A stretch of 64,000 nt of DNA from a virus (IMGVR_UViG_3300042880_000509); one strand, 5' to 3'; positions 4,951-52,129 are shown, counted from the first letter of the stretch. The notes: generated from the letters alone by a model not told the origin. Numbers and translations are program-made.

Positions 4951-4975
4951 AATGTAATTATTAATATTATTTTTT

Positions 4976-5436: not shown

Positions 5437-5474
5437 ATTTTTTATTTATACAAAGATAATAAAAAATATGAATC

Positions 5475-6395
5475 CTACATCCTGTCTGAATACATTTCGT
5501 AAAACTTTTCTGGCATTTTTAAATGGTCAAGATTTATAGGTTCTGATTGTCCTTTATTTTCCAATCTTTTTATAAATTCACGGATTCTAGGATAACCGCT
5601 CCAGTTTTGCCATTTTGAAATTATTTTTACATTACTAGGTATTGATTCATACGTTTGTTTTGTTGTTGGGTCAATAAGTCCAACAAAGTCAAAATCATCT
5701 TTAATATGTTTCCAAGCTTGTGTTCCTCCAGCAGAAAAACCACTTACAGATTTTATCTTATAATCATTTATTCCATTTTTAGTTAAAACATTTTTTAAAG
5801 TATCCAATGAATTTTCAAAATTACTATAAACTACATTTCTATCCGAAAAATATTTATCACCACCATTATTTTTCATCCATTTTGCACCATAAGTAGAGCT
5901 AGGATAACCGCCCCAAATAACAGTAATATCATCCGAATCGGGATCGTTCATTTCTATAATATATGTTCCACCATTTATTGTTTTACTTTCTTTTTTTGTT
6001 TCTTGTTTTTTTGGTTCTGATTTTTTATTTTTTTCTTCAGTATCTTTTTCTTCTGTTTTTTTTGAGAGTATTGATTTTAATTTTTCAATATCTTCAGTAT
6101 TCATTGTTCCGGTAACTTCTAGTCCTTCTTCTTCTTGGAATTTTTTTACATTTTTTTCTGTTTCATTTCCGTATTTACCATCAATACCAAATTTACCAAA
6201 ACTATAACCTAATTTATCAAGACCGGCTTGAATTGCAGCAACACCTTTAGTAAATGAGTAATTATTCATTCCTTTTCTATGGATTTCTCCACCGTCAATA
6301 ATTTCATCTAAATCATTTATGTAATCTTCAAATGATTTATTTTCAAGTAATCTTATCAATCTAGAAGTTTGACTTTCAGTTAGTATTATTTTCAT
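5475..6395 (-). CDS. Peptidoglycan-binding domain plus serine hydrolase (alpha/beta, G-F-S-A-G nucleophile elbow) with shared leader
   Basis: PG_binding_1-like GLDKLGYSFGKFGIDGKYGNETEKNVKKFQEEEGLEVTG. Lys/Glu-rich linker. C-terminal domain with GFSAGG (GxSxG). N-terminus MKIILTESQTSRLIRLLE. Confidence 0.65.
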   Translation of the reverse strand: MKIILTESQTSRLIRLLENKSFEDYINDLDEIIDGGEIHRKGMNNYSFTKGVAAIQAGLDKLGYSFGKFGIDGKYGNETEKNVKKFQEEEGLEVTGTMNTEDIEKLKSILSKKTEEKDTEEKNKKSEPKKQETKKESKTINGGTYIIEMNDPDSDDITVIWGGYPSSTYGAKWMKNNGGDKYFSDRNVVYSNFENSLDTLKNVLTKNGINDYKIKSVSGFSAGGTQAWKHIKDDFDFVGLIDPTTKQTYESIPSNVKIISKWQNWSGYPRIREFIKRLENKGQSEPINLDHLKMPEKFYEMYSDRM

Positions 6396-8183: not shown

Positions 8184-9034
8184 AGGTTGTTAAAATTTCC
8201 TTTTTTGATTTTTTTATCGTCCAAAATAAAACATTTGTTTTCAACATCAATTTTATAACTTTTGTTTGGAAATGAAATATAATCACCGGTTGTAATATCA
8301 ACCAACATAATGTTTTCAACCTTCATACCAAGATAATTCTTTGGTAGTGGTGTGTTTAATATTAATTTTCCATCTTCTTCTGACATACCAGTTAATTCCT
8401 TTACTTGGAAACTCTTTCCGTTAATCTCCAAATCAATTCCGTGATCTCTATCTTGTTTAGATCCTGGAGGAAAATATTTGATATCGTATTTAGAGTTTTT
8501 TAATTTGTCAATAACATATTTTTCAGTGATACTTCCTTTATTGTAGGTATTCATATTAGCCCTAATAAGTTCTTTTAAAATAGGACCTTCATTTAATAAC
8601 CTTTCTTTATTATCAACTAACCATTTATAAAAATCTTTTGGTGTTTCACCTTTCTTTTCTTTTTTGAATATGTTTAGCAATCTATCTTTAACAAATTTGT
8701 GACCACCAAAATAATTTAAAATTGACCAACTTGTTAGTTCGTTAAGTGGATGTATGTCAATAATACCGCGTTTACTTTTATCTTCGTTCCAATCCAAATT
8801 ATCTTTATAAATTTCAAACAATAATTTATTTAAAAATTTAGCAAACCTACTATTATTTTGGATAAATTCAATATTTAAATTTCCTGGGTTGTTATCTTCT
8901 GAATCCACAATATTAATATAACCTTCTAATGATTTATCATTATTATTTTGATTAAAGTCAATTTCCATTTGATTTTCTGTTAGTCCCATCAAACTCAAAT
9001 TTCTTTTTATTTCGTTAATTATTGTTTTTTCCAT
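8180..9034 (-). CDS. Hypothetical protein (284 aa)
   Basis: Long ORF in coding-like sequence. Start overlaps the upstream gene stop (ATGA), suggesting translational coupling with the paralog array. Confidence 0.55.
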   Translation of the reverse strand: MEKTIINEIKRNLSLMGLTENQMEIDFNQNNNDKSLEGYINIVDSEDNNPGNLNIEFIQNNSRFAKFLNKLLFEIYKDNLDWNEDKSKRGIIDIHPLNELTSWSILNYFGGHKFVKDRLLNIFKKEKKGETPKDFYKWLVDNKERLLNEGPILKELIRANMNTYNKGSITEKYVIDKLKNSKYDIKYFPPGSKQDRDHGIDLEINGKSFQVKELTGMSEEDGKLILNTPLPKNYLGMKVENIMLVDITTGDYISFPNKSYKIDVENKCFILDDKKIKKGNFNNL

Positions 9035-9705
9035 TATTCAAAATTCTCCTCTTTTAATATTATTGGTTCACCTTTTGTAGTATTTCTTTCAACCCATACA
9101 TGATATAAATAACCATTATTATTTTGATTGTATAATTTTAATACTCCGTTACCACCGGCGTCTTCATCCCAACTATCGGTTTCTAATACTTCACTAATCA
9201 TCATTATTACGTCATAAGCAAAAAATCTGGTGTCTTGACGATTTAATTCCTTATTATTATATGTTATTGTACAGTCAAAATTATTTTCGTGTCCAGAATA
9301 ATCAATTATAAGTTCTTCAAGTTCCATATCTTCCATAAATTTTGATAGTGAATAATAGTCTCTTAATTGTCTCCAATCAAATTTCCTATTATCTTTTGAT
9401 TCTGTATATGTAAAATATTTTGGTATTAACATTATTTCTCTTTTTTTTGGATAAACACTAAAATCAACCCAGTATGCTGGTTCGTGTTTATCTGTTCTAT
9501 TATAAAGTTCTTCACCATAATTGGTTAGTATTGAATGAAAAAACTTTTTAAATATATCAATAATTGTAAATCTATGAGTTCTTTCTGTTACCCAATTTTC
9601 AGGAAAATGCTCAATATCACCAATCAACATATCAATATTTGTTCCTATTGGCCCAATTGGATTAAGGTATGCCATTAGTGCTCTAAATGTTCTTTTTTTT
9701 AACAT
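9034..9705 (-). CDS. Tandem-paralog family member 1 (223 aa), most divergent copy
   Basis: N-terminus MLKKRTFRALMAYLNPIG. Shares the YPKK..I and W-x-DAGGNG motifs with the neighbouring copies. Confidence 0.6.
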   Translation of the reverse strand: MLKKRTFRALMAYLNPIGPIGTNIDMLIGDIEHFPENWVTERTHRFTIIDIFKKFFHSILTNYGEELYNRTDKHEPAYWVDFSVYPKKREIMLIPKYFTYTESKDNRKFDWRQLRDYYSLSKFMEDMELEELIIDYSGHENNFDCTITYNNKELNRQDTRFFAYDVIMMISEVLETDSWDEDAGGNGVLKLYNQNNNGYLYHVWVERNTTKGEPIILKEENFE

Positions 9706-14833: not shown

Positions 14834-15372
14834 TTAAGAAATCTTAATTTATAGATTGTTGAGTTAATTAGTTCTTGAACTGTATCAATTTGATTTTGAA
14901 TGTAGCTGTCTTCAACAGAATCTCTATTTTCTTCAATTATATCAAGTAGTCTTTCAAAATAAGAAATTGTTTTCTTTCCATTTCTATATTGTTCTACTTT
15001 GAAAGTTTTGAAATTTTTAATAATTCCATACTTTCCTTGGTATGATTCAACAATCCCATCAAACAATGCTACAACCGCATCATAATAACCATTCAACGCA
15101 ATGTGTTCGGCGTAAGATTTTGTTTGTAAGTGAAACACATGAGCCTGATTTCTTGAGTGTAAGATATTACATACCATTTCACAAAAATCATCATTTGATT
15201 CGTTTTCTACATCATCATCCTCTTCCTCTTGATCATCTTCTTCATCATCAATATCTTCTTCATCCCCTTCGTTTTCATCATCTTCAAAATCCTCATCTTC
15301 TTCATCTTCTTCTTCAAAGATGTTTCTTTTTTTGAGTTCTTCATAAAGTTTTTCTGTTAAATTCTTTTCCAT
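14830..15372 (-). CDS. Highly acidic protein (about 50-aa D/E tract) with a structured C-terminal domain
   Basis: EEDEEDEDFEDDENEGDEEDIDDEEDDQEEEDDDVENESNDD followed by a non-repetitive 120-aa C-terminus. Confidence 0.55.
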   Translation of the reverse strand: MEKNLTEKLYEELKKRNIFEEEDEEDEDFEDDENEGDEEDIDDEEDDQEEEDDDVENESNDDFCEMVCNILHSRNQAHVFHLQTKSYAEHIALNGYYDAVVALFDGIVESYQGKYGIIKNFKTFKVEQYRNGKKTISYFERLLDIIEENRDSVEDSYIQNQIDTVQELINSTIYKLRFLK

Positions 15373-25508: not shown

Positions 25509-26204
25509 CTAATTTTCTAAATTCATTTTTAAAATTCCAATATGTTTTTTAATTTCATCTCTATATTGTTTAGCGATCACCCAAGGCGCCGTGGTACAAT
25601 TAAAATTATTTTCATTTATAAATTGTTTTACTCTGGTTTGTTCTTCTTCTAACAGATTTATCTGTTTTTTAATTTCTTCGCCCATATTATTTATTTTATT
25701 TAATGTTTCTTGTTTAGGTTCTTCTTGTGGAATGATGATTTTGTAATTCTCGTAAATACCTTCTTTAATAGTACCATCAGCAAATCTATCAATGTATTTA
25801 CCATCTTCCATTCTTTCAATCTCAACACACTCACAACTTGGATTCTTTACAAACCAATTCAAGAACTCATCATCAATAGCTTGAACACCATCTGCAATTA
25901 ACTCTGGGTCTGTTGTTAGAATGATTTTTTTGCAAGCATTTAATACTTCAGTAACTCCATCTTGAAATCTAATTATACCTATATTTGATTTAATTTCTAC
26001 TACTTTATGGACTAATTCTTCAGAACATAAACACCAATCTCCTTCTTTAATTTCTTCATTGGAAGTGATGTAGATATTATAATCTTGAAACCAATCTTCT
26101 TCTATTACATTTTCAAAATCATTATCTATTGTAAATATAGAATCTTTTTTATTGTAAAATAATCTACTTGGTTTTTCTGTTGGTAATAAATGTATGTTTT
26201 TCAT
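25509..26204 (-). CDS. Hypothetical protein, duplicated family (paralog of 29801..30580)
   Basis: The N-terminal 130 aa (MKNIHLLPTEKPSRL...KIILTTDPELIADGVQAIDDEFLNWFVKNPSCECVEI) align with those of the gene at 29801..30580. Confidence 0.6.
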   Translation of the reverse strand: MKNIHLLPTEKPSRLFYNKKDSIFTIDNDFENVIEEDWFQDYNIYITSNEEIKEGDWCLCSEELVHKVVEIKSNIGIIRFQDGVTEVLNACKKIILTTDPELIADGVQAIDDEFLNWFVKNPSCECVEIERMEDGKYIDRFADGTIKEGIYENYKIIIPQEEPKQETLNKINNMGEEIKKQINLLEEEQTRVKQFINENNFNCTTAPWVIAKQYRDEIKKHIGILKMNLEN

Positions 26205-26263
26205 ATTTTTTAAATTTCTTATACAAACTTAAACAATCTATTTTGATTTGAAAAGTATTTTTA

Positions 26264-26293
26264 GTTAAAATGGGTGTAAACCCCTATGAAAAT
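26264..26293 (-). repeat. 30-nt conserved intergenic element (copy 1) upstream of the duplicated gene; contains a GGGT-GTAA-ACCC hairpin
   Basis: GTTAAAATGGGTGTAAACCCCTATGAAAAT is identical at 30645..30674. Both copies lie 60-75 nt upstream of the paralog start codons on the minus strand. Confidence 0.6.
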
Positions 26294-26318
26294 TAGTATA
26301 AATACTGTTCTTAATTTA

Positions 26319-29800: not shown

Positions 29801-30580
29801 TCATTTTATATGTTGTTTCTTTTTAAATTGTTCAAATGATTCTTCATTTATTGTAAAGCTCATTACACCAAGTGCTTTAGCAACAGATATTTCAATTGCA
29901 TTCTTTAGTTCTTCCTCACTATACATTCTTTCAGATTGGTATTTAGCACCTAACCTAACTCCATCATAAAAAGATAAATCTATATCATCTTGTAATCCCT
30001 TTTGGTAAGTTCTTTCAGCAGCTTCTTCAAGTGTTTCATCTTTACTAGTACCTGACTTCTCTCTCATCTCTTGTAAGTCCTTAGTAACTTTTTCCTTGTT
30101 TGTTAAAAGATATTCCCTAAGTGCTAATTTAGCATTTTCTAGTGTAGGATCTTGTTTAGGTTTTTCTTGTGGAATGATGATTTTTAGAAAAGAAGTAATT
30201 TCGGAAATATCACTTAAAACGCCACTATGATATTTTCTAATCTCTACAAACTCACAACTTGGATTCTTTACAAACCATTCTAAGAACTCATCATCAATAC
30301 TCTGAACACCCTCTTCAATTAACTCTTGGTCTGTTGTTAGAATAATTTTCTTACCATTATAATTAACACCTGATACTAAACAATATATATTACTATCCTC
30401 ACCTAAATAATATTCGTCAAATTTAATTTCTTCATCAGAAGTTATGTATAAATGATAATTCTTACAATGTCCTTTTGGTGTGTTAGTTAATCCATTAGTA
30501 TAAAGTTTAATGGATGAACTCCCACCAGGTTTAGTTAACCTACTTGGTTTTTCTGTTGGTAATACGTGTATGTTTTTCAT
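29801..30580 (-). CDS. Hypothetical protein, duplicated family (paralog of 25509..26204)
   Basis: MKNIHVLPTEKPSRL...KIILTTDQELIEEGVQSIDDEFLEWFVKNPSCEFVEI. The C-terminal half diverges from the paralog. Confidence 0.6.
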   Translation of the reverse strand: MKNIHVLPTEKPSRLTKPGGSSSIKLYTNGLTNTPKGHCKNYHLYITSDEEIKFDEYYLGEDSNIYCLVSGVNYNGKKIILTTDQELIEEGVQSIDDEFLEWFVKNPSCEFVEIRKYHSGVLSDISEITSFLKIIIPQEKPKQDPTLENAKLALREYLLTNKEKVTKDLQEMREKSGTSKDETLEEAAERTYQKGLQDDIDLSFYDGVRLGAKYQSERMYSEEELKNAIEISVAKALGVMSFTINEESFEQFKKKQHIK

Positions 30581-30644
30581 ATTTCTTATTTTTTAATTGT
30601 TAAGACAAAATTAGGAAAAATATTTGGTTTTAAAAAATTTTTTT

Positions 30645-30674
30645 GTTAAAATGGGTGTAAACCCCTATGAAAAT
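30645..30674 (-). repeat. 30-nt conserved intergenic element (copy 2)
   Basis: Identical to 26264..26293. Flanking bases are also similar over about 45 nt. Confidence 0.6.
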
Positions 30675-30686
30675 AAGGATAAACCC

Positions 30687-43253: not shown

Positions 43254-44310
43254 GAATTTTTAAATCTTCATCAAATTTCTTTTTTTCTTCCATTATTTCT
43301 TCCGTTTCAGATTCAACATCTTCTTCGTATGGTTCAAGAACGGGCATTGGTATTAATCTTGCGGTTCTTCTTAAACGACGAAGTGCTGGTGCTGGTGCGT
43401 CTATATATCCTGGTAATTCATCCGATATCTTCATTTCTTCTACACAAAGATTATCTTCCGGTAATGATCCATTGTATTTTCTCATTTCATTTTTTTCATC
43501 TTCAGAAAATAACCTATAATTTGGAATTGTTGTTGGTGATTTTAAATCACATTCCATTAAAATTATCTGGAGGATATTCATTGGAAGACCGGTCTGTATT
43601 GTATCAATTTGTTTATCTTCCTGGTTATATGTTTTAAACACATATTGTTCGTGATCATCCATCATTTCATATGGTTGTGGGAAACTTCTATAAAAAGCAA
43701 ACTTTTTATTTTCTTTTTTATCAATAAGATAAATTAAGATTCCTCTTGAATGGTTGTAGAAATAACCGGGATCATTAATCATTGCTGTACACCATTTTGT
43801 TTGATACCCATATGAACAAGATGACGCATAGGTCAATGGTTTAAAAATCATATAATTATCGTCTTCAAAAATCTTGTGAATTTCTTTTTTTGATTTTTTA
43901 AACAACTCACGATTCTTGGCTTCAAATAATTGTGTTTCCAACATATCCCAGGAATCGTATTTACTGATGTCTTTTTCATCAATCACACCTTTTTCCATTA
44001 ATTCTGTAAACTCAACAAATCTTTCCATACTATTCCAAGTAAATACGAAATCACAAAAAAAGATTCTTGATAACATGTTTTCAAAAGAATTATTTGGTAC
44101 AACTCTTTCTAATGGAGGTTGGTTTGTTTCTTGTATTCTAAATTTTCTATTTTCATCTTGTTCTTTTTGCCACGATTCAATTCTTTTATTAATCATTTTA
44201 ACCAAAAACTGTGAATATTTTTTGGTTTTACTTGTATCAAATCTTTCCAACATATTGGCAAGATTTAAATTTAAAATTTCATTTTCTTTTTTTAATTTCT
44301 TAATTCCCAT
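43171..44310 (-). CDS. Hypothetical protein (379 aa), paralog of 54542..55603; acidic C-terminal tail
   Basis: Shared block FEDDNYMIFKPLTYASSCSYGYQTKWCT vs HEDDTWLVLTPLSFDASRVYGSNTKWCT. N-terminal blocks are also similar. Confidence 0.6.
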   Translation of the reverse strand: MGIKKLKKENEILNLNLANMLERFDTSKTKKYSQFLVKMINKRIESWQKEQDENRKFRIQETNQPPLERVVPNNSFENMLSRIFFCDFVFTWNSMERFVEFTELMEKGVIDEKDISKYDSWDMLETQLFEAKNRELFKKSKKEIHKIFEDDNYMIFKPLTYASSCSYGYQTKWCTAMINDPGYFYNHSRGILIYLIDKKENKKFAFYRSFPQPYEMMDDHEQYVFKTYNQEDKQIDTIQTGLPMNILQIILMECDLKSPTTIPNYRLFSEDEKNEMRKYNGSLPEDNLCVEEMKISDELPGYIDAPAPALRRLRRTARLIPMPVLEPYEEDVESETEEIMEEKKKFDEDLKIRVEIAKEELEKQIEEHISFHKSYVRES

Positions 44311-44506
44311 TTTCTTCTTTATTTTCTATTAAACAACTTCCTAACACATATAACTGAAATAATACGAATATAACAATCATAAAAAAATTATTCCAGATTG
44401 TCCAATTCAAAGGATTAAATTCATCCTGAAAAAAACATATAATTGCATACCAAAAAAATTCTTTGGCAAAAAACTCTTGTTTATTAAGTTTATGTTGATT
44501 TTCCAC
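44300..44506 (-). CDS. Small membrane protein (68 aa)
   Basis: Hydrophobic FFWYAIICFF...FFMIVIFVLFQLYVLG. Confidence 0.35.
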   Translation of the reverse strand: MENQHKLNKQEFFAKEFFWYAIICFFQDEFNPLNWTIWNNFFMIVIFVLFQLYVLGSCLIENKEENGN

Positions 44507-44748
44507 TATCTTAAAACAAAAGGATGAATAATAACCACAATTTGCTCAACTCTACCTTCCTGTGGTATTATGGCTCTATCTTCTTTTACAATAATATCCA
44601 TAAATCCAAGATCTTCTTTTAATCTATTGGCTTGGATTTCAACTTCTTTTTTTGCTTCTTCTTCATTTTTAAAGAACCCAAAATATGAATCACAATTTCC
44701 GGTTTTATCACAAACTCCAAAAATCACTTCTCTTGCTGGTTTTATCAT
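44506..44748 (-). CDS. Hypothetical protein (80 aa)
   Basis: ORF. Confidence 0.45.
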   Translation of the reverse strand: MIKPAREVIFGVCDKTGNCDSYFGFFKNEEEAKKEVEIQANRLKEDLGFMDIIVKEDRAIIPQEGRVEQIVVIIHPFVLR

Positions 44749-44885
44749 AATCTATTTGCTATTTGTTTTATTAATAATTCTTCTTCATTTGTTAATCGGT
44801 AATAAGAGTTCCATATTTTACTTAAATCGTCTCTTAATTCTTTTTCTCCGTTTGATTCTTCATCACCCCTAACAATTTTTCTTAT

Positions 44886-44944
44886 TCATCTTTAAAACCT
44901 TGTTTTTCAGTTGTTTTTAAATGGGTGTTGATATATATTAGTTA
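44886..44944 (-). repeat. 59-nt intergenic repeat, copy 1 (begins exactly at the stop codon of the methyltransferase gene)
   Basis: TCATCTTTAAAACCTTGTTTTTCAGTTGTTTTTAAATGGGTGTTGATATATATTAGTTA on the plus strand. The copy at 50801..50859 differs at one position. Confidence 0.7.
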
Positions 44945-45736
44945 GTTGCAATACTGCGAAGCCCTCCGAACAGCAACATCGTAATATTGTTTTTCCTTTT
45001 CTATTCCAATTGATTTGCGATTTAATTTGATACAAGCCAAATTGGTAGTTCCTGAACCCATTGTATTATCCAATACCATATCACCTTCGTTTGTGTATGA
45101 TTTCACAAGCATTTCAAGTAAAGCAAGCGGCTTCTGAGTTGGATGTATCGTTCCATCAAGCTTTGTTTTTTGTTTATCTGAAGCAAAAACTTGTACACTT
45201 CTTGGGTATCTGTCAGTTTCTCCACCACCACTTACATCTTGCTTTACTTTCCCATACACTTCTGTTTTATTACAAACTTCGGCTTTCTTGGTATAGGTAT
45301 TTACAGGCTTATGTCCTTCTGTTTTTTGTGGATTAAACTTTGGGGTTTTATTGTAAAATACTAAAATATTTTCGTGTGCTTTCATAGGCATTTTCTTTGC
45401 ATTAAAATATCCTGTTGCTTGTGTTTTCTCCCAAATCCATTCGTATTTTAACCATTCCAAATTTGAGCAACCAAGCACTTTATCAAATGGTGTTTGTGCA
45501 AATAAAACTACCACTCCATTATCTTTTAGTATTCTTTTGTATTGCTCCCAAAGTTTATTTAAGTCTAAAACAGAATCCCATTTGCAGTTAGTAGTTCCAT
45601 AAGGCAAATCGCAAATAATAGCATCAATTGATTTATCATCAATAAAAGGAAAAACATCAAAGCAATCAGCTTTCACAAAAGTACTGCCACTAACACGTGT
45701 TTGGCAAAATGGCTGTTCAGTAATTCTATCAATCAT
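44942..45736 (-). CDS. DNA methyltransferase (N6-adenine/N4-cytosine family, beta-class order)
   Basis: Motif IV DAIICDLPYGT (DPPY-like) is N-terminal. The C-terminal AdoMet motif VLDNTMGSGTT places it in PF01555-like architecture. Confidence 0.8.
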   Translation of the reverse strand: MIDRITEQPFCQTRVSGSTFVKADCFDVFPFIDDKSIDAIICDLPYGTTNCKWDSVLDLNKLWEQYKRILKDNGVVVLFAQTPFDKVLGCSNLEWLKYEWIWEKTQATGYFNAKKMPMKAHENILVFYNKTPKFNPQKTEGHKPVNTYTKKAEVCNKTEVYGKVKQDVSGGGETDRYPRSVQVFASDKQKTKLDGTIHPTQKPLALLEMLVKSYTNEGDMVLDNTMGSGTTNLACIKLNRKSIGIEKEKQYYDVAVRRASQYCN

Positions 45737-45919
45737 TCGTTCTTAATTTTAAAGTTTAGTAATTCTATTTAAGTTCTGGTTCAGCCACTTCGCCAAGCCC
45801 GATAACGTTATAACCATTCGGCCATATTATTTTTATCACTTCTACCCATTTGGTCATAAACCTCATCCAAATAAACATCTATTCTAACGTAACTCATTTT
45901 TTATCTTTTTACAAAGTTA

Positions 45920-45958
45920 ATAAAAAAAAGTGACTCAACCAAGTTAATGGGAGTCACC
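45920..45958 (-). terminator. Intrinsic terminator overlapping the last codons of the RNA ligase gene (GTGACTC...GAGTCAC plus T8)
   Basis: 7-bp stem with a 14-nt loop. The minus strand continues with TTTTTTTT. Confidence 0.65.
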
Positions 45959-47077
45959 TACGTTATTTTTTTCACCATATATCAAGTAATCAGGATTTAT
46001 TACCTTACTTACTTTTCTACGGTCACCAGTTATAGATTTAACAACAACACCTTCGTGTGGTACTTTGGTGCCTTCTATGTTATTATTGAAGACGAATTTA
46101 TCTTGTTCTTCTTTATTCCAATTACCCTGGTATAACAATTCAACTTGTGGTAATTGTAAACAATCAAAATGTACGGTTTCATTTATGTAAGGCTGGTATA
46201 CACCATCAACTTCAACATCAAACCCGGCGAATTTAACATCAGTTAAACCGTACTCATAGTTTTTTTGTATACCAGCTCCATATATCTCACCATATATTAC
46301 AACACCTTCAGTTAGGTCAGATGGTTCGTAAGTATCTTTTACGTGATCCCACAATTTACCTCTTATGTCGTATGTGCTACCAACAGTTTTCCATACATCG
46401 GTGTCATAGAAGCCTTGAGAATCGGATCCTTTCTCAACATTATGTGAGCCGTAAACATATTCAAATGCAACCCATTGATTTCCGAAAAACATTTTAACAC
46501 GGTCCCATAGAGAAAGTTTTTTCTTTCTAACTATTCCGTAACGAGCATTGGTTCCGTGAAGTTTACGAGTTATAACAACTTCGTCTTCTTCACTAAACAT
46601 ATCCGGAACATTCTTCTGGTTTGGAAATTTGTAATAAACATGGAAGTTAGGGTTTTGATGGTATTTTACTTTACGTCCACCAACACTTAACTGAACGGTT
46701 TTAACTGGTGGTTCGTATTTAGTTATACCAAGTATTCCCATCATATCATCGCCTTCGTTTACGTTATTCTCCAAAGATTTTGGAGCTAAGTACTTGAATG
46801 GTATTAACAAACATTCAGAGTAAACACCACGAAGTTTTACGGTTCTAACTCTTTGCCCTTTACGAAGGTAATTAGTTACACCCATTAAATCAGATAAATC
46901 CTGTGGTATTACAGCATCGGTAGTTGCTACAACAACCTTATCACCAACCTGGTATTCTCCTTTTTTAGTTATGGCGTTCCATCCACCAACAGTTACTAAT
47001 TCTATATTATCAGCACCCGGTATTTCAGACACGGATCCTATTTTTCCTACGTATGCAACACTATTTAAATTTTTCAT
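45944..47077 (-). CDS. RNA ligase (Rnl2-like nucleotidyltransferase) with N-terminal tRNA-binding OB-fold (Myf/Trbp111-like) domain
   Basis: N-terminus AYVGKIGSVSEIPGADNIELVTVGGW...KGEYQVGDKVVVA matches the tRNA_bind fold. Motif I KLHGTN (Rnl2 KIHGTN). EGVVIYGE, GFDV and a C-terminal PHEGVVVKS...RRKVSKV (motifs IV/V). Confidence 0.6.
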   Translation of the reverse strand: MKNLNSVAYVGKIGSVSEIPGADNIELVTVGGWNAITKKGEYQVGDKVVVATTDAVIPQDLSDLMGVTNYLRKGQRVRTVKLRGVYSECLLIPFKYLAPKSLENNVNEGDDMMGILGITKYEPPVKTVQLSVGGRKVKYHQNPNFHVYYKFPNQKNVPDMFSEEDEVVITRKLHGTNARYGIVRKKKLSLWDRVKMFFGNQWVAFEYVYGSHNVEKGSDSQGFYDTDVWKTVGSTYDIRGKLWDHVKDTYEPSDLTEGVVIYGEIYGAGIQKNYEYGLTDVKFAGFDVEVDGVYQPYINETVHFDCLQLPQVELLYQGNWNKEEQDKFVFNNNIEGTKVPHEGVVVKSITGDRRKVSKVINPDYLIYGEKNNVGDSH

Positions 47078-47079
47078 TT

Positions 47080-47340
47080 TTATATATTTTCAAATTCTTC
47101 TTTTACTGAATCAATTTCTTCTTTCAATCTTTCAAGTTCTTTGGATAACATCTCTTTAATGGCTCCTTTGTTATAAAGACTAACCTCATCTTTTCTTGGA
47201 AAAGATCCTCCTATTGAGTAACCAATTGTCACACCTAAAGAACAAGATTTTAACGCAGATTCCAATTTATACTTCTGTCTTTCCAACCTATCAAGATCTT
47301 CTTTAATTTTTTTTGCTTTTTCAAATTTTTCTAATTCCAT
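47080..47340 (-). CDS. Small coiled-coil protein (86 aa)
   Basis: ORF. Heptad-rich. Confidence 0.45.
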   Translation of the reverse strand: MELEKFEKAKKIKEDLDRLERQKYKLESALKSCSLGVTIGYSIGGSFPRKDEVSLYNKGAIKEMLSKELERLKEEIDSVKEEFENI

Positions 47341-47495
47341 CAGTCATTCATTTTTAAACTAGGTGTTAATAACAAGGCAAAAAGACACATAGCACTTCCT
47401 GTAAAGTAAACCGCGGTTCCTATTAATCCAAAGAAACCTAAATAAATCAAACTAATTCCTAAATATTTCATATCACAAAGGTATAAATAATTTTT

Positions 47496-48305
47496 TTAAT
47501 TATCACTATCTTCTTCAAAATTTATCAATAAATCAAACTCTTTTTCTTTTCTTTTTTCTTCCACCCTCTTTAAAGAAATATTAAAATAATCCATACTATT
47601 CTCAATTCCGATAAAGTTTCGGTTGGTATTTATACAAGCAATTCCTGTTGTACAACTACCAAATGTATTATCTAAAATAGTATCACCATCATTACTGTAT
47701 GAGTTTATCAACCATTCAATCAATTCAACAGGTTTTTGTGTGCTATGTAATTGGTCTTGTCTTCTCCATTTTTGTTGAAAAAATTGTACAGTTGAAGGAT
47801 ACCTAAATCCATCATTAATAGTTTCACTTTCAGAAATTACACCAAGTTTATGATTGTTTGGTTTATCTCCTTTATTCGCTTTTCGCTTTCTATAATATGG
47901 TTTGCCTTCTTCAAGTTGTGGATTATAAACAACTTTACCTTTACCAAATATTAAAATGTTTTCGTGTTTTTGAACAGGTCTATATTTAGCGGTAAATGAA
48001 CTACCACTTTTAGATTTGTGCCAAATTATTTCATACTTATACATTTTTTCATTCGATAATGCTAATTTGTAAGCAAACAAACCTGTTCCAAATAAAGCAA
48101 TAGCACCATCATCTTTTATAATCCTTTTATATTGTTCCCAAAGTTGTTCAAATGGAATTACAATATCCCAATAGTTTTTAGTTGAACCATAAGGTAAATC
48201 ACAGCAAATAAAGTCAATACTTTTATCAGGTATCAATTTCATTTGTTCTATTGTATCTCCGTATCTTAAATCTATTGTCATAATTTTATTCAACGTCGTC
48301 TTCAA
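47496..48305 (-). CDS. DNA methyltransferase, second copy of the same family
   Basis: DFICCDLPYGST and ILDNTFGSCTT. About 35-40% identical by eye to 44942..45736 over conserved blocks. Confidence 0.8.
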   Translation of the reverse strand: MKTTLNKIMTIDLRYGDTIEQMKLIPDKSIDFICCDLPYGSTKNYWDIVIPFEQLWEQYKRIIKDDGAIALFGTGLFAYKLALSNEKMYKYEIIWHKSKSGSSFTAKYRPVQKHENILIFGKGKVVYNPQLEEGKPYYRKRKANKGDKPNNHKLGVISESETINDGFRYPSTVQFFQQKWRRQDQLHSTQKPVELIEWLINSYSNDGDTILDNTFGSCTTGIACINTNRNFIGIENSMDYFNISLKRVEEKRKEKEFDLLINFEEDSDN

Positions 48306-48804
48306 AATATTTCTTCATAGATCTTGGTTCGGTAAAATCCCACTTCTTACTTTCAAATTCTTCAATCCATTCTTTCAAATCTTCTCTTGTCCATATTGGC
48401 CCAAAAGAAGGTCTGTATTGGAATGGTACATTATCTTTATTTTCCCACTCATCAAGTCGTTGTGTTACATCATCAATAAAGTTTTTAGTTTTAGTGTGTT
48501 TAATCCACTCTCTGTAATCGTCTTCAGATTTAATAAACATAACATCACCATAATTATAAAACTCCATTTCAGGAAATTCCAAATTGGGGTTGTTGGTATA
48601 AACATCAACAATACCATTGTCACCGTAATATGAATCACAAAGTTCTCTTAAAGCATATATACTACTTGGTCTTTCTTCCCATACACTACCGAACTGACGT
48701 ACAGAACAAATATACAAATAACCATCTTCATAAGAATTTATTTTATATTCAATTTTATTTCGTAATGAAATAAGTTCGTCCATTGTTAGTTTATCTAAGT
48801 TCAT
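48286..48804 (-). CDS. Hypothetical protein (172 aa)
   Basis: ORF. Confidence 0.5.
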   Translation of the reverse strand: MNLDKLTMDELISLRNKIEYKINSYEDGYLYICSVRQFGSVWEERPSSIYALRELCDSYYGDNGIVDVYTNNPNLEFPEMEFYNYGDVMFIKSEDDYREWIKHTKTKNFIDDVTQRLDEWENKDNVPFQYRPSFGPIWTREDLKEWIEEFESKKWDFTEPRSMKKYFEDDVE

Positions 48805-49049
48805 ATTATTTGTGAGCTATTTGCGTTTCTAATTAATCTAATTTTTTCAATTATTTCTTCAGGTGTTTCTTCAACTTTGAATCCTCCGTTATTATGTGTT
48901 GTTACACCAACCACAGTATGTTTTTTTGATGTTGGTTCTCCTTGATGCCACATTTGACTTGCCTTTACTTCGTAAAAATGTCCAATTTCATTAATATTAA
49001 CATAAATGAAACTATCGTCTTTATGGGATGTTAATTTAATTATTTTCAT
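48801..49049 (-). CDS. Hypothetical protein (82 aa)
   Basis: ORF. Confidence 0.45.
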   Translation of the reverse strand: MKIIKLTSHKDDSFIYVNINEIGHFYEVKASQMWHQGEPTSKKHTVVGVTTHNNGGFKVEETPEEIIEKIRLIRNANSSQII

Positions 49050-49054
49050 CTTTT

Positions 49055-49468
49055 TTATTTATACACACCATGCTCTGTCATCTCGGCGTTTGTTTGTTCT
49101 ACAATTTCAATTAACTTTTCAAGACAAGCAAGTTCTGCTTCTTCATATGAATCATAAACTTCTGAAGTCCAACTTCCCCAATTTGCCCACCATTTAGTTT
49201 CATCATATTTTTCAATTCTGATATGGATATTATACTTCTCTCTAAACCATCTAAATGCTTGTGAGTAGGTTGGTGCCGATGTAAAATGTTCAGGAATTTC
49301 AGAGTTCTTACAAGTGGCAAAACCTGTTCTAATATACTCATCTCTATCATCAACACCACAAGGTTTTTCTTCAAAGTTCTCTACTTGATAAAAAGCAAAA
49401 CAAGGACCATTATACCCAAGTTTTTTCATCCTTAATGCAAGTGAGTATATAACAAATTCTTTTTCCAT
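49055..49468 (-). CDS. Hypothetical protein (137 aa; start reassigned to MEKEF)
   Basis: The first about 90 codons of the track ORF overlap the upstream gene out of frame and look like read-through. MEKEFVIYSLALRMKKLGYNGPC reads as a genuine start. Confidence 0.5.
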   Translation of the reverse strand: MEKEFVIYSLALRMKKLGYNGPCFAFYQVENFEEKPCGVDDRDEYIRTGFATCKNSEIPEHFTSAPTYSQAFRWFREKYNIHIRIEKYDETKWWANWGSWTSEVYDSYEEAELACLEKLIEIVEQTNAEMTEHGVYK

Positions 49469-49469
49469 A

Positions 49470-49883
49470 TCACAAAGATAAATGTTTTTTTGCATTTTCC
49501 AAAAATAATTCAATATTTTTTTTACCAACAGGATTTGCCGAATGGACCAAATATTCCGGCAATGGTTGGTTCTCATCCGCACAGTATTCAACAAGAAATT
49601 TAGCACAGTCAAGTCCAGTTTTTTCTTTGATGTTGTCGTAATCCAAAGTTCCTTTGGTTGCAACATTTCTAAAATATTCATCCATTGCAGTATCACCAAG
49701 ATCGTGATCAAATGAAACAAATTCAGGAGCACCATTTACTTCTAAGTATTGTACGAACTCGTCATAGTTTCTTACAACATCCCAATCATTCTCCCAATAA
49801 AATTTATTATGTTTATCCGGAACCAATCCAATTGCGTCTTTTGGTGAACGCACATCATCCAAGAACAATTTATTATTTTTCAT
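49470..49883 (-). CDS. Hypothetical protein (137 aa)
   Basis: ORF. Confidence 0.55.
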   Translation of the reverse strand: MKNNKLFLDDVRSPKDAIGLVPDKHNKFYWENDWDVVRNYDEFVQYLEVNGAPEFVSFDHDLGDTAMDEYFRNVATKGTLDYDNIKEKTGLDCAKFLVEYCADENQPLPEYLVHSANPVGKKNIELFLENAKKHLSL

Positions 49884-50145
49884 TTTCTAATTCTTTTAGT
49901 TGTTTTTGTAAAGGTTCCATATAAGATTCAAAAGTTTCAAATCCTACACCATCATTGAAATGGGTTCTTAATTGGTTTAACTGTTCAATCTTTGCTTTAA
50001 TTTTTTCAACTTGGACCCATTTTGATTCTCTAACAAAATTTGCTATTTGAAATGGTAGTTCTTCGTAATCGTTTGACCAAAGTTCACCTAATTCTTCATC
50101 TTTTTTAAAGCACCAACCCATAGCTTCATCTTCAAGTGTTTTCAT
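49873..50145 (-). CDS. Hypothetical protein (90 aa)
   Basis: ORF. Confidence 0.45.
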   Translation of the reverse strand: MKTLEDEAMGWCFKKDEELGELWSNDYEELPFQIANFVRESKWVQVEKIKAKIEQLNQLRTHFNDGVGFETFESYMEPLQKQLKELENEK

Positions 50146-50158
50146 CTTCTAATCTCTT

Positions 50159-50692
50159 TTAAATTTCTTCATAAAATCCATTTTCTTCGTCATCTTTCAT
50201 CATTTGAATCAACCTAGCTTCTCTCGAATACTTTCGTATAAGTTTGAATATCTCTGTAATATCTGTAAATTCAGATACAGGACTATCGTTTCTACCAGGA
50301 AGAAATATTAAAGTGAATCCGTGGTTTGCTTGAAATCTTTCTGTAACTCTAATTCCACAGATTTCATCAATATAAACCCAAGGAAAGTTTCCTGATAGTT
50401 TTACGTCAATACCAATTTTTTTCAATCTTTCAACAAACCTTGTGATTTTATCACCGGTTAGTTTTGTTGGGCTTTCTTTTTCCATATAAGTTCCAAATTT
50501 AGTTTCTTTTGTTTTCATACTAGAATTTTTCCATTCTTTCCAAACATCAAAGTCTTTAAGTTTTTCTAAAAACTCATCATCCATTTCTTTGGCCTTTCTA
50601 AATAGAGTGTCCGTATATTCTTTATCTTCTTTATTTAAGTAAGGATATAGAGTGTCTTTTAACCATTCTACTGTTGTCTGTTTTACTTCCAT
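50159..50692 (-). CDS. Hypothetical protein (about 177 aa, start at MEVKQTT)
   Basis: ORF. The upstream 15 codons overlap the terminator. Confidence 0.5.
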   Translation of the reverse strand: MEVKQTTVEWLKDTLYPYLNKEDKEYTDTLFRKAKEMDDEFLEKLKDFDVWKEWKNSSMKTKETKFGTYMEKESPTKLTGDKITRFVERLKKIGIDVKLSGNFPWVYIDEICGIRVTERFQANHGFTLIFLPGRNDSPVSEFTDITEIFKLIRKYSREARLIQMMKDDEENGFYEEI

Positions 50693-50720
50693 ATTACAAA
50701 GATATAAAACTTTTTTTAAT

Positions 50721-50753
50721 AAAACAAAAAACCCCAATTTTTATTTTTGGGGC
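50721..50753 (-). terminator. Intrinsic terminator (CCCCAA-AAATAAAAA-TTGGGG plus T-run on the minus strand)
   Basis: 6-bp G/C stem. Minus-strand TTTTTTGTTTT follows. Confidence 0.6.
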
Positions 50754-50800
50754 TGGTGTTTTCAATTTTTAATCACAAATTTTGTAATAATTTGTCTTAG

Positions 50801-50859
50801 TCATCTTTAAAACCTTGTTTTTCAGTTGTTTTTGAATGGGTGTTGATATATATTAGTTA
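50801..50859 (-). repeat. 59-nt intergenic repeat, copy 2 (begins exactly at the stop codon of the Cys-rich protein gene)
   Basis: 58/59 identical to 44886..44944. Confidence 0.7.
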
Positions 50860-51153
50860 TGCCCCATTGTAGTGGACACAACCGAAGTGACTGTGAAACC
50901 TTAGACTATTTGCCAAAAATCGAGCATTTGACTTCTTGTCTTTATCAGTATCCCCAGCCACAAATCTTTCAATCAATTCTTCGCTCATCATTGATACTTG
51001 CTCTATGACAATTGGATTATCACATTTACCAATACCTTCATCGCCATCCCATCCTTTATCTCGCCAAAAACGACAAGAAGAACAACGGGGCATAACAGCA
51101 CCTAAACAAGATGGCTGGCTTTCTGTTTCTAATGAAGTTTTTTCTGTATTCAT
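50857..51153 (-). CDS. Cys-rich small protein (98 aa) in a locally GC-richer segment
   Basis: CLGAVMPRCSSCRFW...GKCDNP...HSHFGCVHY. Local base composition is visibly less AT-rich than the flanks. Confidence 0.5.
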   Translation of the reverse strand: MNTEKTSLETESQPSCLGAVMPRCSSCRFWRDKGWDGDEGIGKCDNPIVIEQVSMMSEELIERFVAGDTDKDKKSNARFLANSLRFHSHFGCVHYNGA

Positions 51154-51200
51154 AATTTAGTTTCGAGGTGTAATCAGCCACCTCGTTTAGCTGCAATCCG

Positions 51201-51470
51201 TTAGTGAGAATAAAGAAGAATATAGATTTTATCATCTTCTGGTAGTTTTATATAACCAACATCTTCCATAATAGGAATACCAGATTTTATTTTATCATGT
51301 AAATTTGATATTTCAGATAAAGATGATAAAATCTTCTTGTATTTTTTACCACCGATTTTAATCGTTTCTTCTTTACTCTCACTAACATCAGATATATTCA
51401 ATTTTTCCTTTGAATTTTCAATTAAGAAGTCCTTAAATTTGTTAATTTCTTTTCTCATTTCGTGTTCCAT
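51201..51470 (-). CDS. Hypothetical protein (89 aa)
   Basis: ORF. Confidence 0.45.
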   Translation of the reverse strand: MEHEMRKEINKFKDFLIENSKEKLNISDVSESKEETIKIGGKKYKKILSSLSEISNLHDKIKSGIPIMEDVGYIKLPEDDKIYILLYSH

Positions 51471-51946
51471 AATTTTCTTTTATATATAAATATCAGAAAA
51501 CCTAAATATATCTGAGCATCGTTAGGTTCAATCATTAATTTGTTTTGAGTTTATTTCTTTTTTCATATAATACATTGCAAAACCACACCAAATTAATTGT
51601 AGTGTTAAATAAATAATTATTCCTTTTTCCATACTTATATTTTTTACAAAGGTAAAACAAATTAATGACAAAACCTAACAAATGATAAACAACATTAAAA
51701 CGATTGTTTATCATCGGACGTTAGAGATAATATTAAAAATCCAAAAACGATTTTAAGAATTCATTTCTACTTTCCATATCTTCTATATGACTTTGTATTT
51801 TGGTATTGATATGAAATCATTGTACCATTTAAAATTATCTAAATCCTCGTCCTTCATTGTAACTAAAAGACTTTGGTATTCCATACCACTCTCATAATAG
51901 TTTTCAACAAACCATGCGATTCTTTCTTCGTATGTCAATTCAGTTT

Positions 51947-52129
51947 TCATACCATTTTATTTTTACTTCCATAACATTCTAATTTTTTATCTTTAACATT
52001 CCATAAATCTTTTTTCCCTTCTGTCATATGACAATTGTGTTTCTTACCGGTTCTATCGGCAAAATCAACAATCATATCGTTGTGACGATTACGAATAAAG
52101 TGAGGACATTCTTTACAGGGTTTTTTCAC
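51947..52129 (-). CDS. Small Cys/His-rich protein (60 aa)
   Basis: CKECPHF...HNCHM...LECYG. Confidence 0.4.
   Translation of the reverse strand: MKKPCKECPHFIRNRHNDMIVDFADRTGKKHNCHMTEGKKDLWNVKDKKLECYGSKNKMV

Follow-up and report, generated by a model that had tools for sequence, protein, structure and literature searches.

Here we present evidence that two nearly identical repeats in a 64-kb viral window (the whole stretch of DNA analysed) are probably the remains of a phage-borne, integron-like system. With a probability of roughly 0.75, sequence comparison identifies both as relic attI-like sites, each made up of a docking site, a leader and the first codons of a recombinase gene that has otherwise been deleted. 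Seen directly in the comparison are the match of the repeat to the 5′ flank of a recombinase gene, the precision of the junctions, the rows of cassettes, the geometry of the hairpins and their covariation. In the literature we came upon no account of an integron-like cassette system of this kind in phages.

A search of the 64-kb window returned exactly two matches to the 59-nt repeat, at 44886..44944 and 50801..50859, with no further copies; they are identical at 58 of 59 positions (the sole mismatch is A/G on the plus strand), and 100 dinucleotide-preserving shuffles gave none, so that the repeat of the original prediction is real. Both copies open with TAA on the minus strand, as had been described, and these triplets are the stops of a methyltransferase ORF (44942..45736) and of a 98-aa Cys-rich ORF (50857..51153). 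Alignment of the 60 nt upstream of each copy confirmed that the preceding coding sequences are unrelated. The next minus-strand start follows after about 138 nt (copy 1) or 108 nt (copy 2), close to the distances first given, and the terminator reported behind copy 2 only was seen again, as a terminator-like hairpin (CCCCAA, 9 nt, TTGGGG and then T6, at about 50754-50721). The pair can be extended to 75 nt (44870-44944 and 50785-50859, 95%); in copy 1 the last 16 nt of this match are not simply repeat, and from about 44879 downstream the sequence is that of a different gene, joined through an AATAAGA microhomology.

Exact-core scans of IMG/VR place the same ~55 nt directly 5′ of an intact 266-aa Xer-like tyrosine recombinase ORF (ATG...NYYEICNQKLKYLNYS...), as in contigs L004-L007, L020 and L025-L027. 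In the relatives the sequence always precedes this one particular gene, and over 15 loci the docking site has the conserved form ATTGnnnnTAAC↓TAnnATATAT. The end of the repeat, a point missed at first reading, is the start codon and first codons of the deleted recombinase gene. Equally overlooked was the source of the stop-codon coincidence, the TAAC crossover box: the repeat begins on the stops of two unrelated genes because the box contains TAA and cassette ORFs often stop there.

Three interpretations had been offered for the repeat, and comparative data back only the last of them, a recombination or mobile-cassette boundary. A phage-specific promoter or activator-binding site would suit a coding-strand position between genes, with the next start 108-138 nt further on, but is very improbable: there are only two copies in 64 kb, the repeat has no match to TTG...TAnnTTTG and lacks the TAnnTTTG motif seen before other window genes, a terminator-like hairpin stands between copy 2 and the next gene, and the ORF that follows the sequence in relatives is in every case the recombinase. 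Scarcely credible is a structured RNA or 3′ UTR element, or a transposon or MITE end, which the position immediately after stop codons might suggest, since the repeat folds no better than its shuffles on either strand (z -0.8, -0.2 and +0.3), no Rfam family is significant on it (best E 0.19) or reaches the gathering score, and neither terminal inverted repeats nor target duplications were found around the two copies.

The recombinase matches PF00589 and PF13495, its catalytic motifs (GLRVSE, KGxKDR, HxLRHS, GHS and IYTHV) align with those of XerA 4a8e, and its closest relatives by sequence are XerA (4a8e, E 6e-40) and XerD. It nevertheless scores below every curated NCBIfam cutoff, with 155.5 bits against 265 for TIGR02249, 92 against 435 for PRK15417, 185.5 against 220 for XerA and 146.9 against 329.6 for XerD. 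When it is aligned with VchIntIA (2a3v), residues 18-176 correspond to 17-179 and residues 214-265 to 265-316, about 48 residues are missing, and the IntI-specific domain is not there. A single scan of 185,579 representative bacterial genomes gave only one close match, on a 2-kb MAG contig. The 64-kb window holds no intact recombinase gene, 3 codons being kept at copy 1 and 11 at copy 2, and the only trace in a similarity search of the window was 15 aa at copy 2.

At the left edge of the repeat the neighbouring DNA changes. From TAAC on, loci L020, L027 and L030 share 100% identity for 850 nt, and upstream of it the identity falls to 20-46%; the corresponding figures are 98.9% versus 30% for L025/L026 and 99.5% versus 40% for L005/L006, and every one of about 13 different upstream contexts breaks at TAAC. 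By these alignments the left repeat edge (TAAC) is a recombination junction. A comparison of insertion polymorphism in related phages, which the original prediction had proposed, disclosed precise single-gene indels at the site. L002 is the window plus a 297-nt cassette (GACTGC...TTTTATAAC) between CATAAC and TAATATAT; Polaribacter phage Freya_10 is Freya_9 plus a one-gene insert of ~300 nt, and Freya_6 is Freya_5 plus one of ~470 nt, both at ...AAC↓ACCCC, immediately ahead of the integrase, in isolates that are 99.7-100% identical around it. The difference between L002 and the window could have originated in a donor genome and then been transferred by homologous recombination. The 3′ ends of HSPs do not cluster at junctions, so whole-cassette mobility is read from a handful of clear cases and not from a statistic.

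Upstream of the recombinase in L004-L007, L009 and L011 there are 2 to 10 TAAC↓G junctions with one small ORF after each, and in the window three such junctions precede copy 2 (51723, 51524 and 51203). The 5′ end of a cassette is an attC-like imperfect hairpin made up of TAAC, a spacer, a 12-nt L″ arm, a loop of 11-300 nt, an L′ arm and GTTA, and its 3′ end reads ATTGnnnnTAAC. The two arms pair at 11 or more of 12 positions in 34 of 44 junctions, versus 12% at random positions, and among the junctions listed (T)GTTA follows most L′ arms that are paired this well. The 12-bp stem is 98% paired, with compensatory changes in 8 of its 12 pairs, which 0 of 500 shuffles reached; fold z-scores go down to -9. 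The simple structural pattern is not rare in itself (a mean of 1.8 matches per shuffled window), and the attC-like sites were called by this pattern, our own, rather than by the standard attC covariance model; in the window it gives three consecutive sites at 51723-51090 and one at 45810-45688. A scan for the hairpin geometry found it at only one junction in Freya.

The two loci of the window can be read in these terms (Table 1). Copy 2 would be a platform of three cassettes whose recombinase gene has been cut to 11 codons, with a terminator-like hairpin in its place; L004 3835-3934 matches window 50860-50761 at 93%. This hairpin was left uncalled by the terminator scan because its loop exceeds 8 nt. 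The L′ arm of the attC-like site lies within codons PSCLGAVM in cassette 3 and KLNISDV in cassette 2, and the site of cassette 1 has a DNA fold z of -4.4 and stem covariation.

Table 1. Features at the two repeat loci of the window.
Feature	Position	Strand	Details
attI-like docking site, copy 1	44890..44944	-	TAAC crossover box 44944-44941, conserved TAATATATATCAACACC block, leader to recombinase ATG; same sequence 5′ of intact recombinase genes in relatives
Remnant ORF ATGAATAAGAAAAATTGTTAG	44869..44889	-	ATG and ~3 recombinase codons fused to 3′ part of older gene
Single-gene cassette, N6/N4 DNA methyltransferase	44941..45806	-	ORF 45736-44942; PF01555, E 7e-35
attC-like hairpin site of methyltransferase cassette	45688..45810	-	TAAC↓GTTAT, L″ CGGGCTTGGCGA, 82-nt loop, L′ TTGCCAAACACG, T, GTTAGTG; 10/12 pairs; DNA fold z -2.7
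Split gene, N-terminal fragment	45808..45897	-	29 codons, MSYVRIDVYLDEVYDQMGRSDKNNMAEWL and stop; colinear with intact L004 gene (from L004 8724)
Split gene, C-terminal fragment	44745..44885	-	46 codons, IRKIVRGDEES...IANRL and stop; L004 homology resumes at window 44886
attI-like docking site, copy 2	50805..50859	-	TAAC box 50859-50856; TAA is stop of 98-aa Cys-rich ORF
Recombinase gene remnant	50761..50804	-	ATG and 10 codons (MTKTNYYKICD), then TAA; intact-gene homology ends at 50761
Terminator-like hairpin and T-run	50721..50754	-	in place of deleted recombinase body; conserved in L002
Cassette 3	50856..51199	-	98-aa Cys-rich ORF (51153-50857)
Cassette 3 attC-like site	51203-51090	-	L″ GCAGCTAAACGA, 73-nt loop, L′ TTGTTTAGGTGC, T, GTTATGC
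Cassette 2	51200..51520	-	89-aa ORF (51470-51201)
Cassette 2 attC-like site	51524-51380	-	L″ TCAGATATATTT, 104-nt loop, L′ GAATATATCTGA, T, GTTAGTG
Cassette 1	51521..51719	-	34-aa ORF behind promoter-like motif TTTG...TACCTTTG
Cassette 1 attC-like site	51723-51673	-	TAAC↓GTCC, GATGATAAACAA, loop TCGTTTTAATG, TTGTTTATCATT, T, GTTAGGT

Copy 1 would belong to a second platform, of which a piece with the methyltransferase cassette, the attI-like site and the recombinase ATG landed inside another gene; the left junction falls on a TAAC↓G box, and the right one is an illegitimate join at the AATAAGA microhomology. The fusion emerges when window copy 1 is set against both the start of the L004 recombinase and the L004 gene in its uninterrupted form. 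The methyltransferase cassette lies between TAAC↓G at 45810-45806 and the TAAC of copy 1; the syntenic contig L004 lacks it, and in Flavobacterium phage mumin6-1 the gp006 cassette matches it at ~82% identity, the homology beginning exactly at the junction. Its attC-like site, with the L′ arm and GTTA box inside methyltransferase codons 10-18, has the same geometry as those of mumin. The N-terminal fragment of the split gene stops at the TAA of the junction box, while the C-terminal fragment has no ATG, GTG or TTG start and its own stop overlaps the ATG of the next gene.

Could homologous shuffling between conserved intergenic regulatory repeats, with the recombinase a coincidental neighbour, produce such rows? 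In the promoter-early stem-loop (PeSL) cassettes of T4-type phages and in phage morons, small accessory ORFs sit in hyperplastic regions, flanked by repeated promoters and stem-loops, and are shuffled by homologous recombination between these repeats. The 5′ regions of our cassettes do fall into families of conserved sequence (types whose loop reads TCGTTTTAATG or ...TATATGTAG...), arrays begin to resemble one another sharply at the junction, some hairpin loops contain promoter-like TTTG...TAnnTTTG motifs, and arrays exist that have no integrase. Yet the recombinase-proximal site and the cassette ends joined to it have only 3-5 nt in common (AAC or ATAAC), which is too little for homologous recombination; the recombinase gene abuts the array in all ~12 independent loci; and the stems covary while their geometry is kept, which points to a structure-recognising protein. 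We therefore consider shuffling of this kind quite improbable.

An ordinary lysogeny module is also unlikely. Under this explanation the recombinase is a phage integrase, TAAC...ATATAT is attP, the window copies are inert integrase scars, and the variable upstream DNA reflects ordinary mosaicism or imprecise excision with no capture of cassettes. An attP normally lies adjacent to int, as the docking site does, and the part about scars is certainly true, both window genes being deleted. Source records annotate the gene only as integrase or XerD, and Bartlau et al., who isolated the Freya phages, treat their integrase as a marker of lysogeny (PMC8776804). However, neither mosaicism nor imprecise excision predicts rows of up to 10 one-gene units with the same box and hairpin, nor does the explanation predict three different neighbours breaking at a single nucleotide on a 100%-identical integrase allele, or that co-isolated Freya phages differ by the gain or loss of single genes at precisely this site. 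Hairpin junctions of the same TAAC↓G kind also lie between the methyltransferase genes of the cultured phages mumin6-1 and P12002L, which have no integrase, and the recombinase family is nearly absent from the representative bacterial genomes.

In related flavobacterial phages the one-gene cassettes form a row, all in one orientation, with the intact recombinase at its downstream end. In the integron-like reading that we prefer, strand exchange would take place within or beside the AAC of the TAAC box, and circularised cassettes would be inserted at the recombinase-proximal site TAAC↓TAnnATATATCAACACC and later excised, in the way that integron integrases work on attI and attC. Catalysis by the recombinase, folding of the sites as single strands and whatever activity the two orphan sites may still have are inferred. 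With no intact recombinase in the window, its two docking sites may be inert. There is perhaps an even chance that a broader picture holds as a whole: that flavobacterial phages of sizes between 37 kb (siphoviruses) and more than 250 kb (contigs) carry self-contained integron-like gene capture run by a compact Xer-like recombinase lacking the IntI domain, that a hairpin site can take in an ORF start or a whole ORF, that counter-defence cargo such as DNA methyltransferases is traded between phages, and that orphan docking sites are still usable in trans by a recombinase from a co-infecting phage or from a copy outside the window.

The usual view of integrons is that they are bacterial devices and require IntI with its special domain. 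If our reading is true, hairpin-cassette capture evolved, or diversified, outside the IntI family, with a different and smaller phage recombinase. It would account for the hypervariable small-gene regions of aquatic Bacteroidota phages, for the size range (44.0-48.9 kb) of otherwise identical Freya isolates (PMC8776804), and for Muminvirus methyltransferase repertoires, whose variation tracks plating efficiency across hosts (PMC7077304); the "CALINs" reported in virulent phages would be re-read as belonging to a system of the phages' own. Since Freya, Muminvirus and P12002L phages are in culture, as are their hosts, the idea can be put to a direct test. Annotators should note that a gene called "integrase" in such phages does not have to mean a temperate lifestyle.

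Among known systems, PeSL regions resemble ours in the modular shuffling of small flanked ORFs, but the junctions here are precise to a single nucleotide, with 3-5 nt of common sequence, and are tied to a recombinase gene, where PeSL exchange uses repeats of tens of nucleotides and no dedicated recombinase. The likeness to Xer/dif systems lies in the recombinase, nearest XerA/XerD, and in the pdif modules of Acinetobacter plasmids, in which small units of genes likewise lie between Xer-type sites. In contrast, there are no 28-bp dif-like sites here (two 11-bp arms and a 6-bp spacer), the docking site shows no dyad with inverted arms of ~11 bp and a spacer of 6-8 bp, the XerA/C/D models all score below cutoff, and one asymmetric docking site is combined with structured hairpin sites and a recombinase borne by the element.

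Lacking an intact recombinase, the window formally resembles a CALIN (a cluster of attC sites with no integrase) to which orphan attI sites are added, having at least two attC-like sites in a row, by our own pattern, and no integrase nearby. CALINs have been reported in phage genomes, that of the Polaribacter phage P12002L among them, where TAAC↓G hairpin junctions like ours part the methyltransferase genes. With IntegronFinder and HattCI, Qi et al. 2023 (PMC9892861) detected no more than two sites in P12002L; in E. coli, IntI1 recombined into attI1 a predicted attC that is placed here no more finely than the two-methyltransferase cluster of this phage. They took the sites for components of integrons that the phage shares with bacteria, and reported no cognate phage recombinase, attI-like site or multi-cassette platforms.

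Finally, with integrons themselves the differences are several. The phage recombinase, at 266 aa, lacks ~48 residues including the IntI-specific domain and falls below the TIGR02249 and PRK15417 cutoffs. This domain is thought necessary for recognition of attC, which in integrons recombines as a folded single strand with a double-stranded attI. Integron ORFs are followed by their attC, mostly promoterless, expressed from Pc and pointing away from intI, whereas phage cassette ORFs lie on the recombinase-sense strand and are directed at the recombinase, their hairpin is upstream of, overlaps or encloses the ORF, and some cassettes seem to be equipped with a promoter. Phages, among them contigs above 250 kb, carry the system. 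The likeness is nevertheless extensive: a tyrosine recombinase gene beside a docking site and then a row of one-gene cassettes, kept in relatives (L004-L007, L009, L011, L020, L025-L027 and Freya), the recombinase being reduced to 3- and 11-codon remnants in the window; a putatively unique attI-type insertion site, indicated by indels, neighbour swaps and the 15-locus consensus; imperfect-hairpin cassette sites of the R″-L″...L′-R′ type by our own pattern, in which structure is conserved over sequence, with outer AAC/GTT boxes, an asymmetric spacer, bulged inner L arms and a variable loop; an apparent crossover in the AAC/GTT box, new cassettes seeming to enter recombinase-proximally; and, on the recombinase-sense strand, the geometry of the integron bottom strand (5′-RYYYAA↓C...GTTRRRY-3′).

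The two copies of the 59-nt repeat, each read on the minus strand as TAACTAATATATATCAACACCCATT(T/C)AAAAACAACTGAAAAACAAGGTTTTAAAGATGA, are best explained as relic docking sites of an integron-like phage system, a reading that comparative sequence puts at a probability of about 0.75. By docking site we mean an attI-like site, a TAAC box with its leader, directly 5' of a Xer-like tyrosine recombinase gene; a cassette is a one-gene unit between TAAC|G boxes, and its attC-like site is an imperfect hairpin of L'' and L' arms ending in GTTA. The original prediction had described two copies with one mismatch, each starting on a stop codon and preceded by unrelated DNA, and this description proved correct: a pattern search of the window returned these two copies only, with one base different between them, while shuffles predict none, the initial TAA terminates a methyltransferase ORF at copy 1 and a 98-aa Cys-rich ORF at copy 2, and the DNA 5' of the two is unrelated. 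A short-word BLAST search of the window with the repeat as query added only chance 8-14-mers and no other partial copy, an Rfam scan of 44000-52000 with E up to 10 gave merely sub-threshold snoRNA/sRNA noise, and sigma-70 promoter and terminator scans gave no signal exceeding shuffle expectation. The repeat itself is without structure, in line with expectation for an attI-type site.

Three contigs came up in an exact-core scan of IMG/VR, and in one of them, a related phage contig (L001/L004), an identical 55 nt is followed by ATG AAT AAG ACA AAT TAT TAT GAA ATT TGT AAT CAA AAA TTG AAG TAT TTA AAC TAC TCG..., a reading frame that encodes a tyrosine recombinase N-terminus. Searching with this protein brought up intact 266-aa genes in L005, L006, L007, L009/L010 and L011 and remoter ones in L012-L016, with domains PF13495 and PF00589 and catalytic motifs that align with Pyrococcus XerA (4a8e, E 6e-40). 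The recombinase falls under the curated cutoff of every NCBIfam Xer/IntI model, and it aligns with Vibrio IntIA in two pieces, skipping about 48 IntIA residues in the region with the IntI-specific domain. The family comprises more than 120 metagenome clusters at 77% identity or above, named only 'XerD', on contigs of up to 354 kb; it is nearly missing from representative bacterial genomes, and the closest cultured homologues of this recombinase, at 38-41%, belong to Polaribacter phages Freya_1-10 and Cellulophaga phage Ingeline. The 64-kb window holds no intact copy. Copy 2 retains the ATG and 10 codons (MTKTNYYKICD*), with homology to the recombinase gene stopping at 50761 and a terminator-like hairpin after the remnant, and copy 1 retains only ATGAATAAGA. 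Almost certainly, the repeat derives from a deleted recombinase gene, of which it preserves the 5' flank and the opening codons.

That the left edge of the repeat would be a site-specific cassette junction of the integron-like phage system is well supported comparatively. A relaxed scan yielded 21 loci, in which similarity begins at TAAC in about 13 different upstream contexts. Starting at TAAC and running into the recombinase gene, L020, L027 and L030 are 100% identical over 850 nt; upstream they are unrelated (20-46%). The corresponding values are 98.9% versus 30% for L025/L026 and 99.5% versus 40% for L005/L006. L002, elsewhere 88-99.5% identical to the window and 98% across the flanking Cys-rich gene, has an additional unit of 297 nt that carries a single 71-aa ORF, sits exactly between CATAAC and TAATATAT and terminates in TATAAC. 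The Freya isolates show 99.7-100% identity around the integrase, yet the immediate upstream neighbour differs: Freya_9 reads ...TTTTTACCAAC|ACCCCTATAAC..., at this junction Freya_10 carries an insert of one gene, GTTCTACAGC...TTGTTGCTAAC, the same kind of difference separates Freya_5 from Freya_6, and Freya_1 has a third kind of neighbour. Since the L002 and Freya joins share only AAC (or ATAAC), homologous recombination is ruled out there, and the joins point to site-specific exchange in or adjoining the AAC. Fifteen aligned recombinase-proximal sites, whose recombinases are 32-100% identical, give the docking-site consensus ATTGnnnnTAAC|TAnnATATAT.

Each intact recombinase is preceded, on its own strand, by 2-10 more TAAC|G junctions with one small ORF after each, and the box TAA is the ORF stop in roughly 40% of cassettes. 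The cassettes of L005 and L006 are largely different despite recombinases 99.5% identical, so cassette turnover far outpaces change in the backbone. An endpoint statistic intended to show whole-cassette mobility does not discriminate between models, because HSP starts alone cluster at junctions. Co-isolated near-identical phages (Freya_1-10, MT732463-MT732472; mumin, MN812220-MN812226) vary in genome length by hundreds to thousands of nucleotides. For Freya this variation maps to the row of cassettes 5' of the integrase, and the gene immediately 3' of the integrase encodes an HNH endonuclease in all Freya isolates. L002 carries two diverged copies of one window gene start, one upstream of its cassette row and the other downstream of the docking site, and L004 has a block homologous to the window downstream of its recombinase; the breakpoints of these blocks fall in common promoter-like sequence.

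A cassette starts with a 4-5 nt spacer, a 12-nt L'' arm, a variable insert, the complementary L' arm, T and GTTA(T/G). The arms pair at 11/12 or better at 34 of 44 junctions versus 12% at random positions, and (T)GTTA follows L' in most sites paired at least 11/12, among the output listed; a G opposite TT recurs just past the 12-bp arm and looks like a conserved bulge. In a compact class with loop TCGTTTTAATG (17 distinct sites), the 12-bp stem is 98% paired with compensatory changes at 8 of its 12 pairs; 0 of 500 shuffles reached the stem values and register-slid controls drop to 36-63%. Whole-site fold z-scores go down to -9. The insert runs from 11 nt to about 300 nt and can contain a TTTG...TAnnTTTG promoter-like motif, a start codon and the first ~20 codons, the L' arm and GTTA box then lying within the ORF (KLNISDV in ORF89, PSCLGAVM in the Cys-rich ORF, QPFCQTRVSG in the methyltransferase); elsewhere, as in the L002 cassette, it holds the whole ORF. 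For cassettes in which L'' and L' flank the ORF, a terminal-inverted-repeat transposon was considered and rejected, since L' is inside the ORF in most cassettes and the flanks are inverted (TAAC/GTTA), not duplicated. A window-wide scan for the hairpin pattern found just three sites, all on the minus strand and all before copy 2; the methyltransferase attC-like site scores 10/12. By itself the pattern gives 1.8 matches per shuffled window, so the weight rests on the clustering and position of the real matches, and in the Freya arrays a scan for the hairpin geometry came back mostly negative. Where L' follows the ORF, the cassette is closed at its 3' end by a second hairpin kind, GTTAnnnnn-TCGTTTTAATG-nnnnnTAAC|; its 11-nt loop is invariant in 23 instances and the stems vary.

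Copy 1 belongs to an insertion into an older gene. L004 is syntenic with the window and has one unbroken small gene (MSSIRVYVDLDNVYDEMDRHDKKTIAEWLYEDGILDTHPNPEIRKMVRGDQES...) at this locus, where the window has 922 nt instead of ~36 nt. The split gene breaks off at ...GAATGGTTATAAC, followed by GTTATCGGGC..., the methyltransferase, ...TTGCAACTAAC, the 55-nt site and the recombinase remnant, after which it picks up again at AATAAGAAAAATTGTTAGGGGT. The left junction of the insert is TAAC|G; the right one is evidently an AATAAGA microhomology join of the recombinase's fourth codon to the target gene, because of which the repeat finder lengthens the copy pair to 75 nt at 95%. The methyltransferase unit is ~82% identical to the gp006 unit of the cultured Flavobacterium phage mumin6-1, with homology beginning exactly at the TAAC|G junction, and mumin6-1 has ...TAAC|GTTnTCG... 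between successive methyltransferase genes. A reading in which the downstream 46-codon ORF begins at ATGAATAAGAAAAATTG, through a programmed frameshift or a homopolymer error, was dropped, as L004 shows the ORF to be the 3' half of the split gene. This C-terminal fragment is open over 46 codons in the window and L003 (2 aa differences), is without ATG/GTG/TTG, lies in the +1 frame relative to the 6-codon remnant ORF, has a stop that overlaps the ATG of the following gene, and could still be expressed.

Loss of the recombinase gene with the site kept is recurrent. Both window remnant alleles are common to L002 and L003, a third truncated allele (MGNYYEIQNKN*) occurs in L029, L034 and L035 with a different upstream cassette in each, and in L004 and L008 a GIY-YIG endonuclease stands in place of the middle of the gene. 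Different cassettes beside the same truncated allele give a hint that orphan docking sites may still be used in trans; alternatively, the cassettes may have been brought there by homologous-recombination transfer from a donor genome. The GIY-YIG homing endonuclease (262 aa, opposite strand) replaces recombinase residues ~139-234 in two contigs that are otherwise different. The third allele and its docking site form a ~120-nt module with different upstream DNA in its three contigs, and the DNA downstream of it in L034 is also unlike that in L029 and L035.

The genes around the repeats are all on the minus strand, and the ~30% G+C together with TAnnTTTG-type motifs before many genes of this region (families D2/D8/D10/D17) fits a Bacteroidota phage. 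When the 8-kb region was compared with cultured phages by megablast, similarity was to Flavobacterium phages only, and its patchiness indicates that the window's phage is absent from the cultured-phage collection. TTTG...TAnnTTTG is the Bacteroidota promoter type, and such motifs ~15-25 nt 5' of the ATG in many window intergenic regions support a Flavobacteriia-type host. Elsewhere in the window, colinear direct repeats 87-90% identical (families D6, D15, D16, D19) indicate that a gene start and its upstream region, TTAAAATGGGTGTAAACCCCTATGAAAAT included, were duplicated ~4.4 kb apart, and repeated TCATCATC/TCTTC units most likely represent the antisense strand of a low-complexity acidic (Asp/Glu-rich) coding stretch.

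Coordinates of repeats, junctions and neighbouring features in the window and in related phage contigs
Sequence	Feature	Position	Strand
Window	Repeat copy 1	44886-44944	minus
Window	Repeat copy 2	50801-50859	minus
Window	TAAC|G junction before copy 1	45810	
Window	TAAC|G junctions before copy 2 (50859)	51723, 51524, 51203	
Window	C-terminal fragment of split gene	44745-44885	minus
Window	TTTG...TAnnTTTG motifs (examples)	45897-45927, 50684-50720, 51625-51663	
Window	Colinear direct repeats	25818-26302, 30239-30683	
Window	TCATCATC/TCTTC run	15188-15316	
L002	Copies (97%, 88%) of gene start at window 50693-50495	6970-7168, 8407-8953	
L002	Second hairpin kind	8215-8243	
L004	Block homologous to window 52166-51961		
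L004	Whole ORF inside insert	3105-3462	
L004	Second hairpin kind	3437-3465	
L004	GIY-YIG gene	4308-5257	
L007	TAAC|G junctions	4628, 4839, 5183, 5288, 5594, 6249, 6569, 6841, 7142, 7642	
L007	Docking site	7945	
L007	Whole ORF inside insert	4839-5183	
L008	GIY-YIG gene	8527-9426	
L029	Second hairpin kind	~5211	
L029	~120-nt module	6135-6256	
L034	Second hairpin kind	~557	
L034	~120-nt module	2636-2757	
L035	~120-nt module	271-385	
L038 (Freya_10)	HNH endonuclease gene	4969-5592	

Applying integron tools to 10,705 phage genomes, Qi et al. (PMC9892861) described in Polaribacter phage P12002L a two-site CALIN with two methyltransferase genes, one predicted attC site of which was recombined by IntI1. 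In P12002L, a phage that has no annotated integrase, eight intergenic positions carry TAAC|G hairpin junctions like those described here, and these may include the site tested with IntI1. A phage recombinase with docking site and cassette rows is not described in Qi et al. or in the Freya (PMC8776804) and Muminvirus (PMC7077304) papers; in a literature search not spanning all journals, Qi et al. 2023 was the only publication on phage integron-like systems, and an earlier description is possible. The likeness to integrons lies in the order, in the sense of the recombinase, of cassettes, docking site and recombinase, and in the cassette site, 5'-...YTAA|C...GTTAYRY-3' with exchange in the 5' box, which corresponds to the canonical integron bottom strand. 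Unlike in integrons, however, the recombinase is not an IntI, the cassette ORFs are on the recombinase-sense strand and directed towards the recombinase, the ORF is overlapped or enclosed by the hairpin, some cassettes seem to bring their own promoter, and the carriers are phages.
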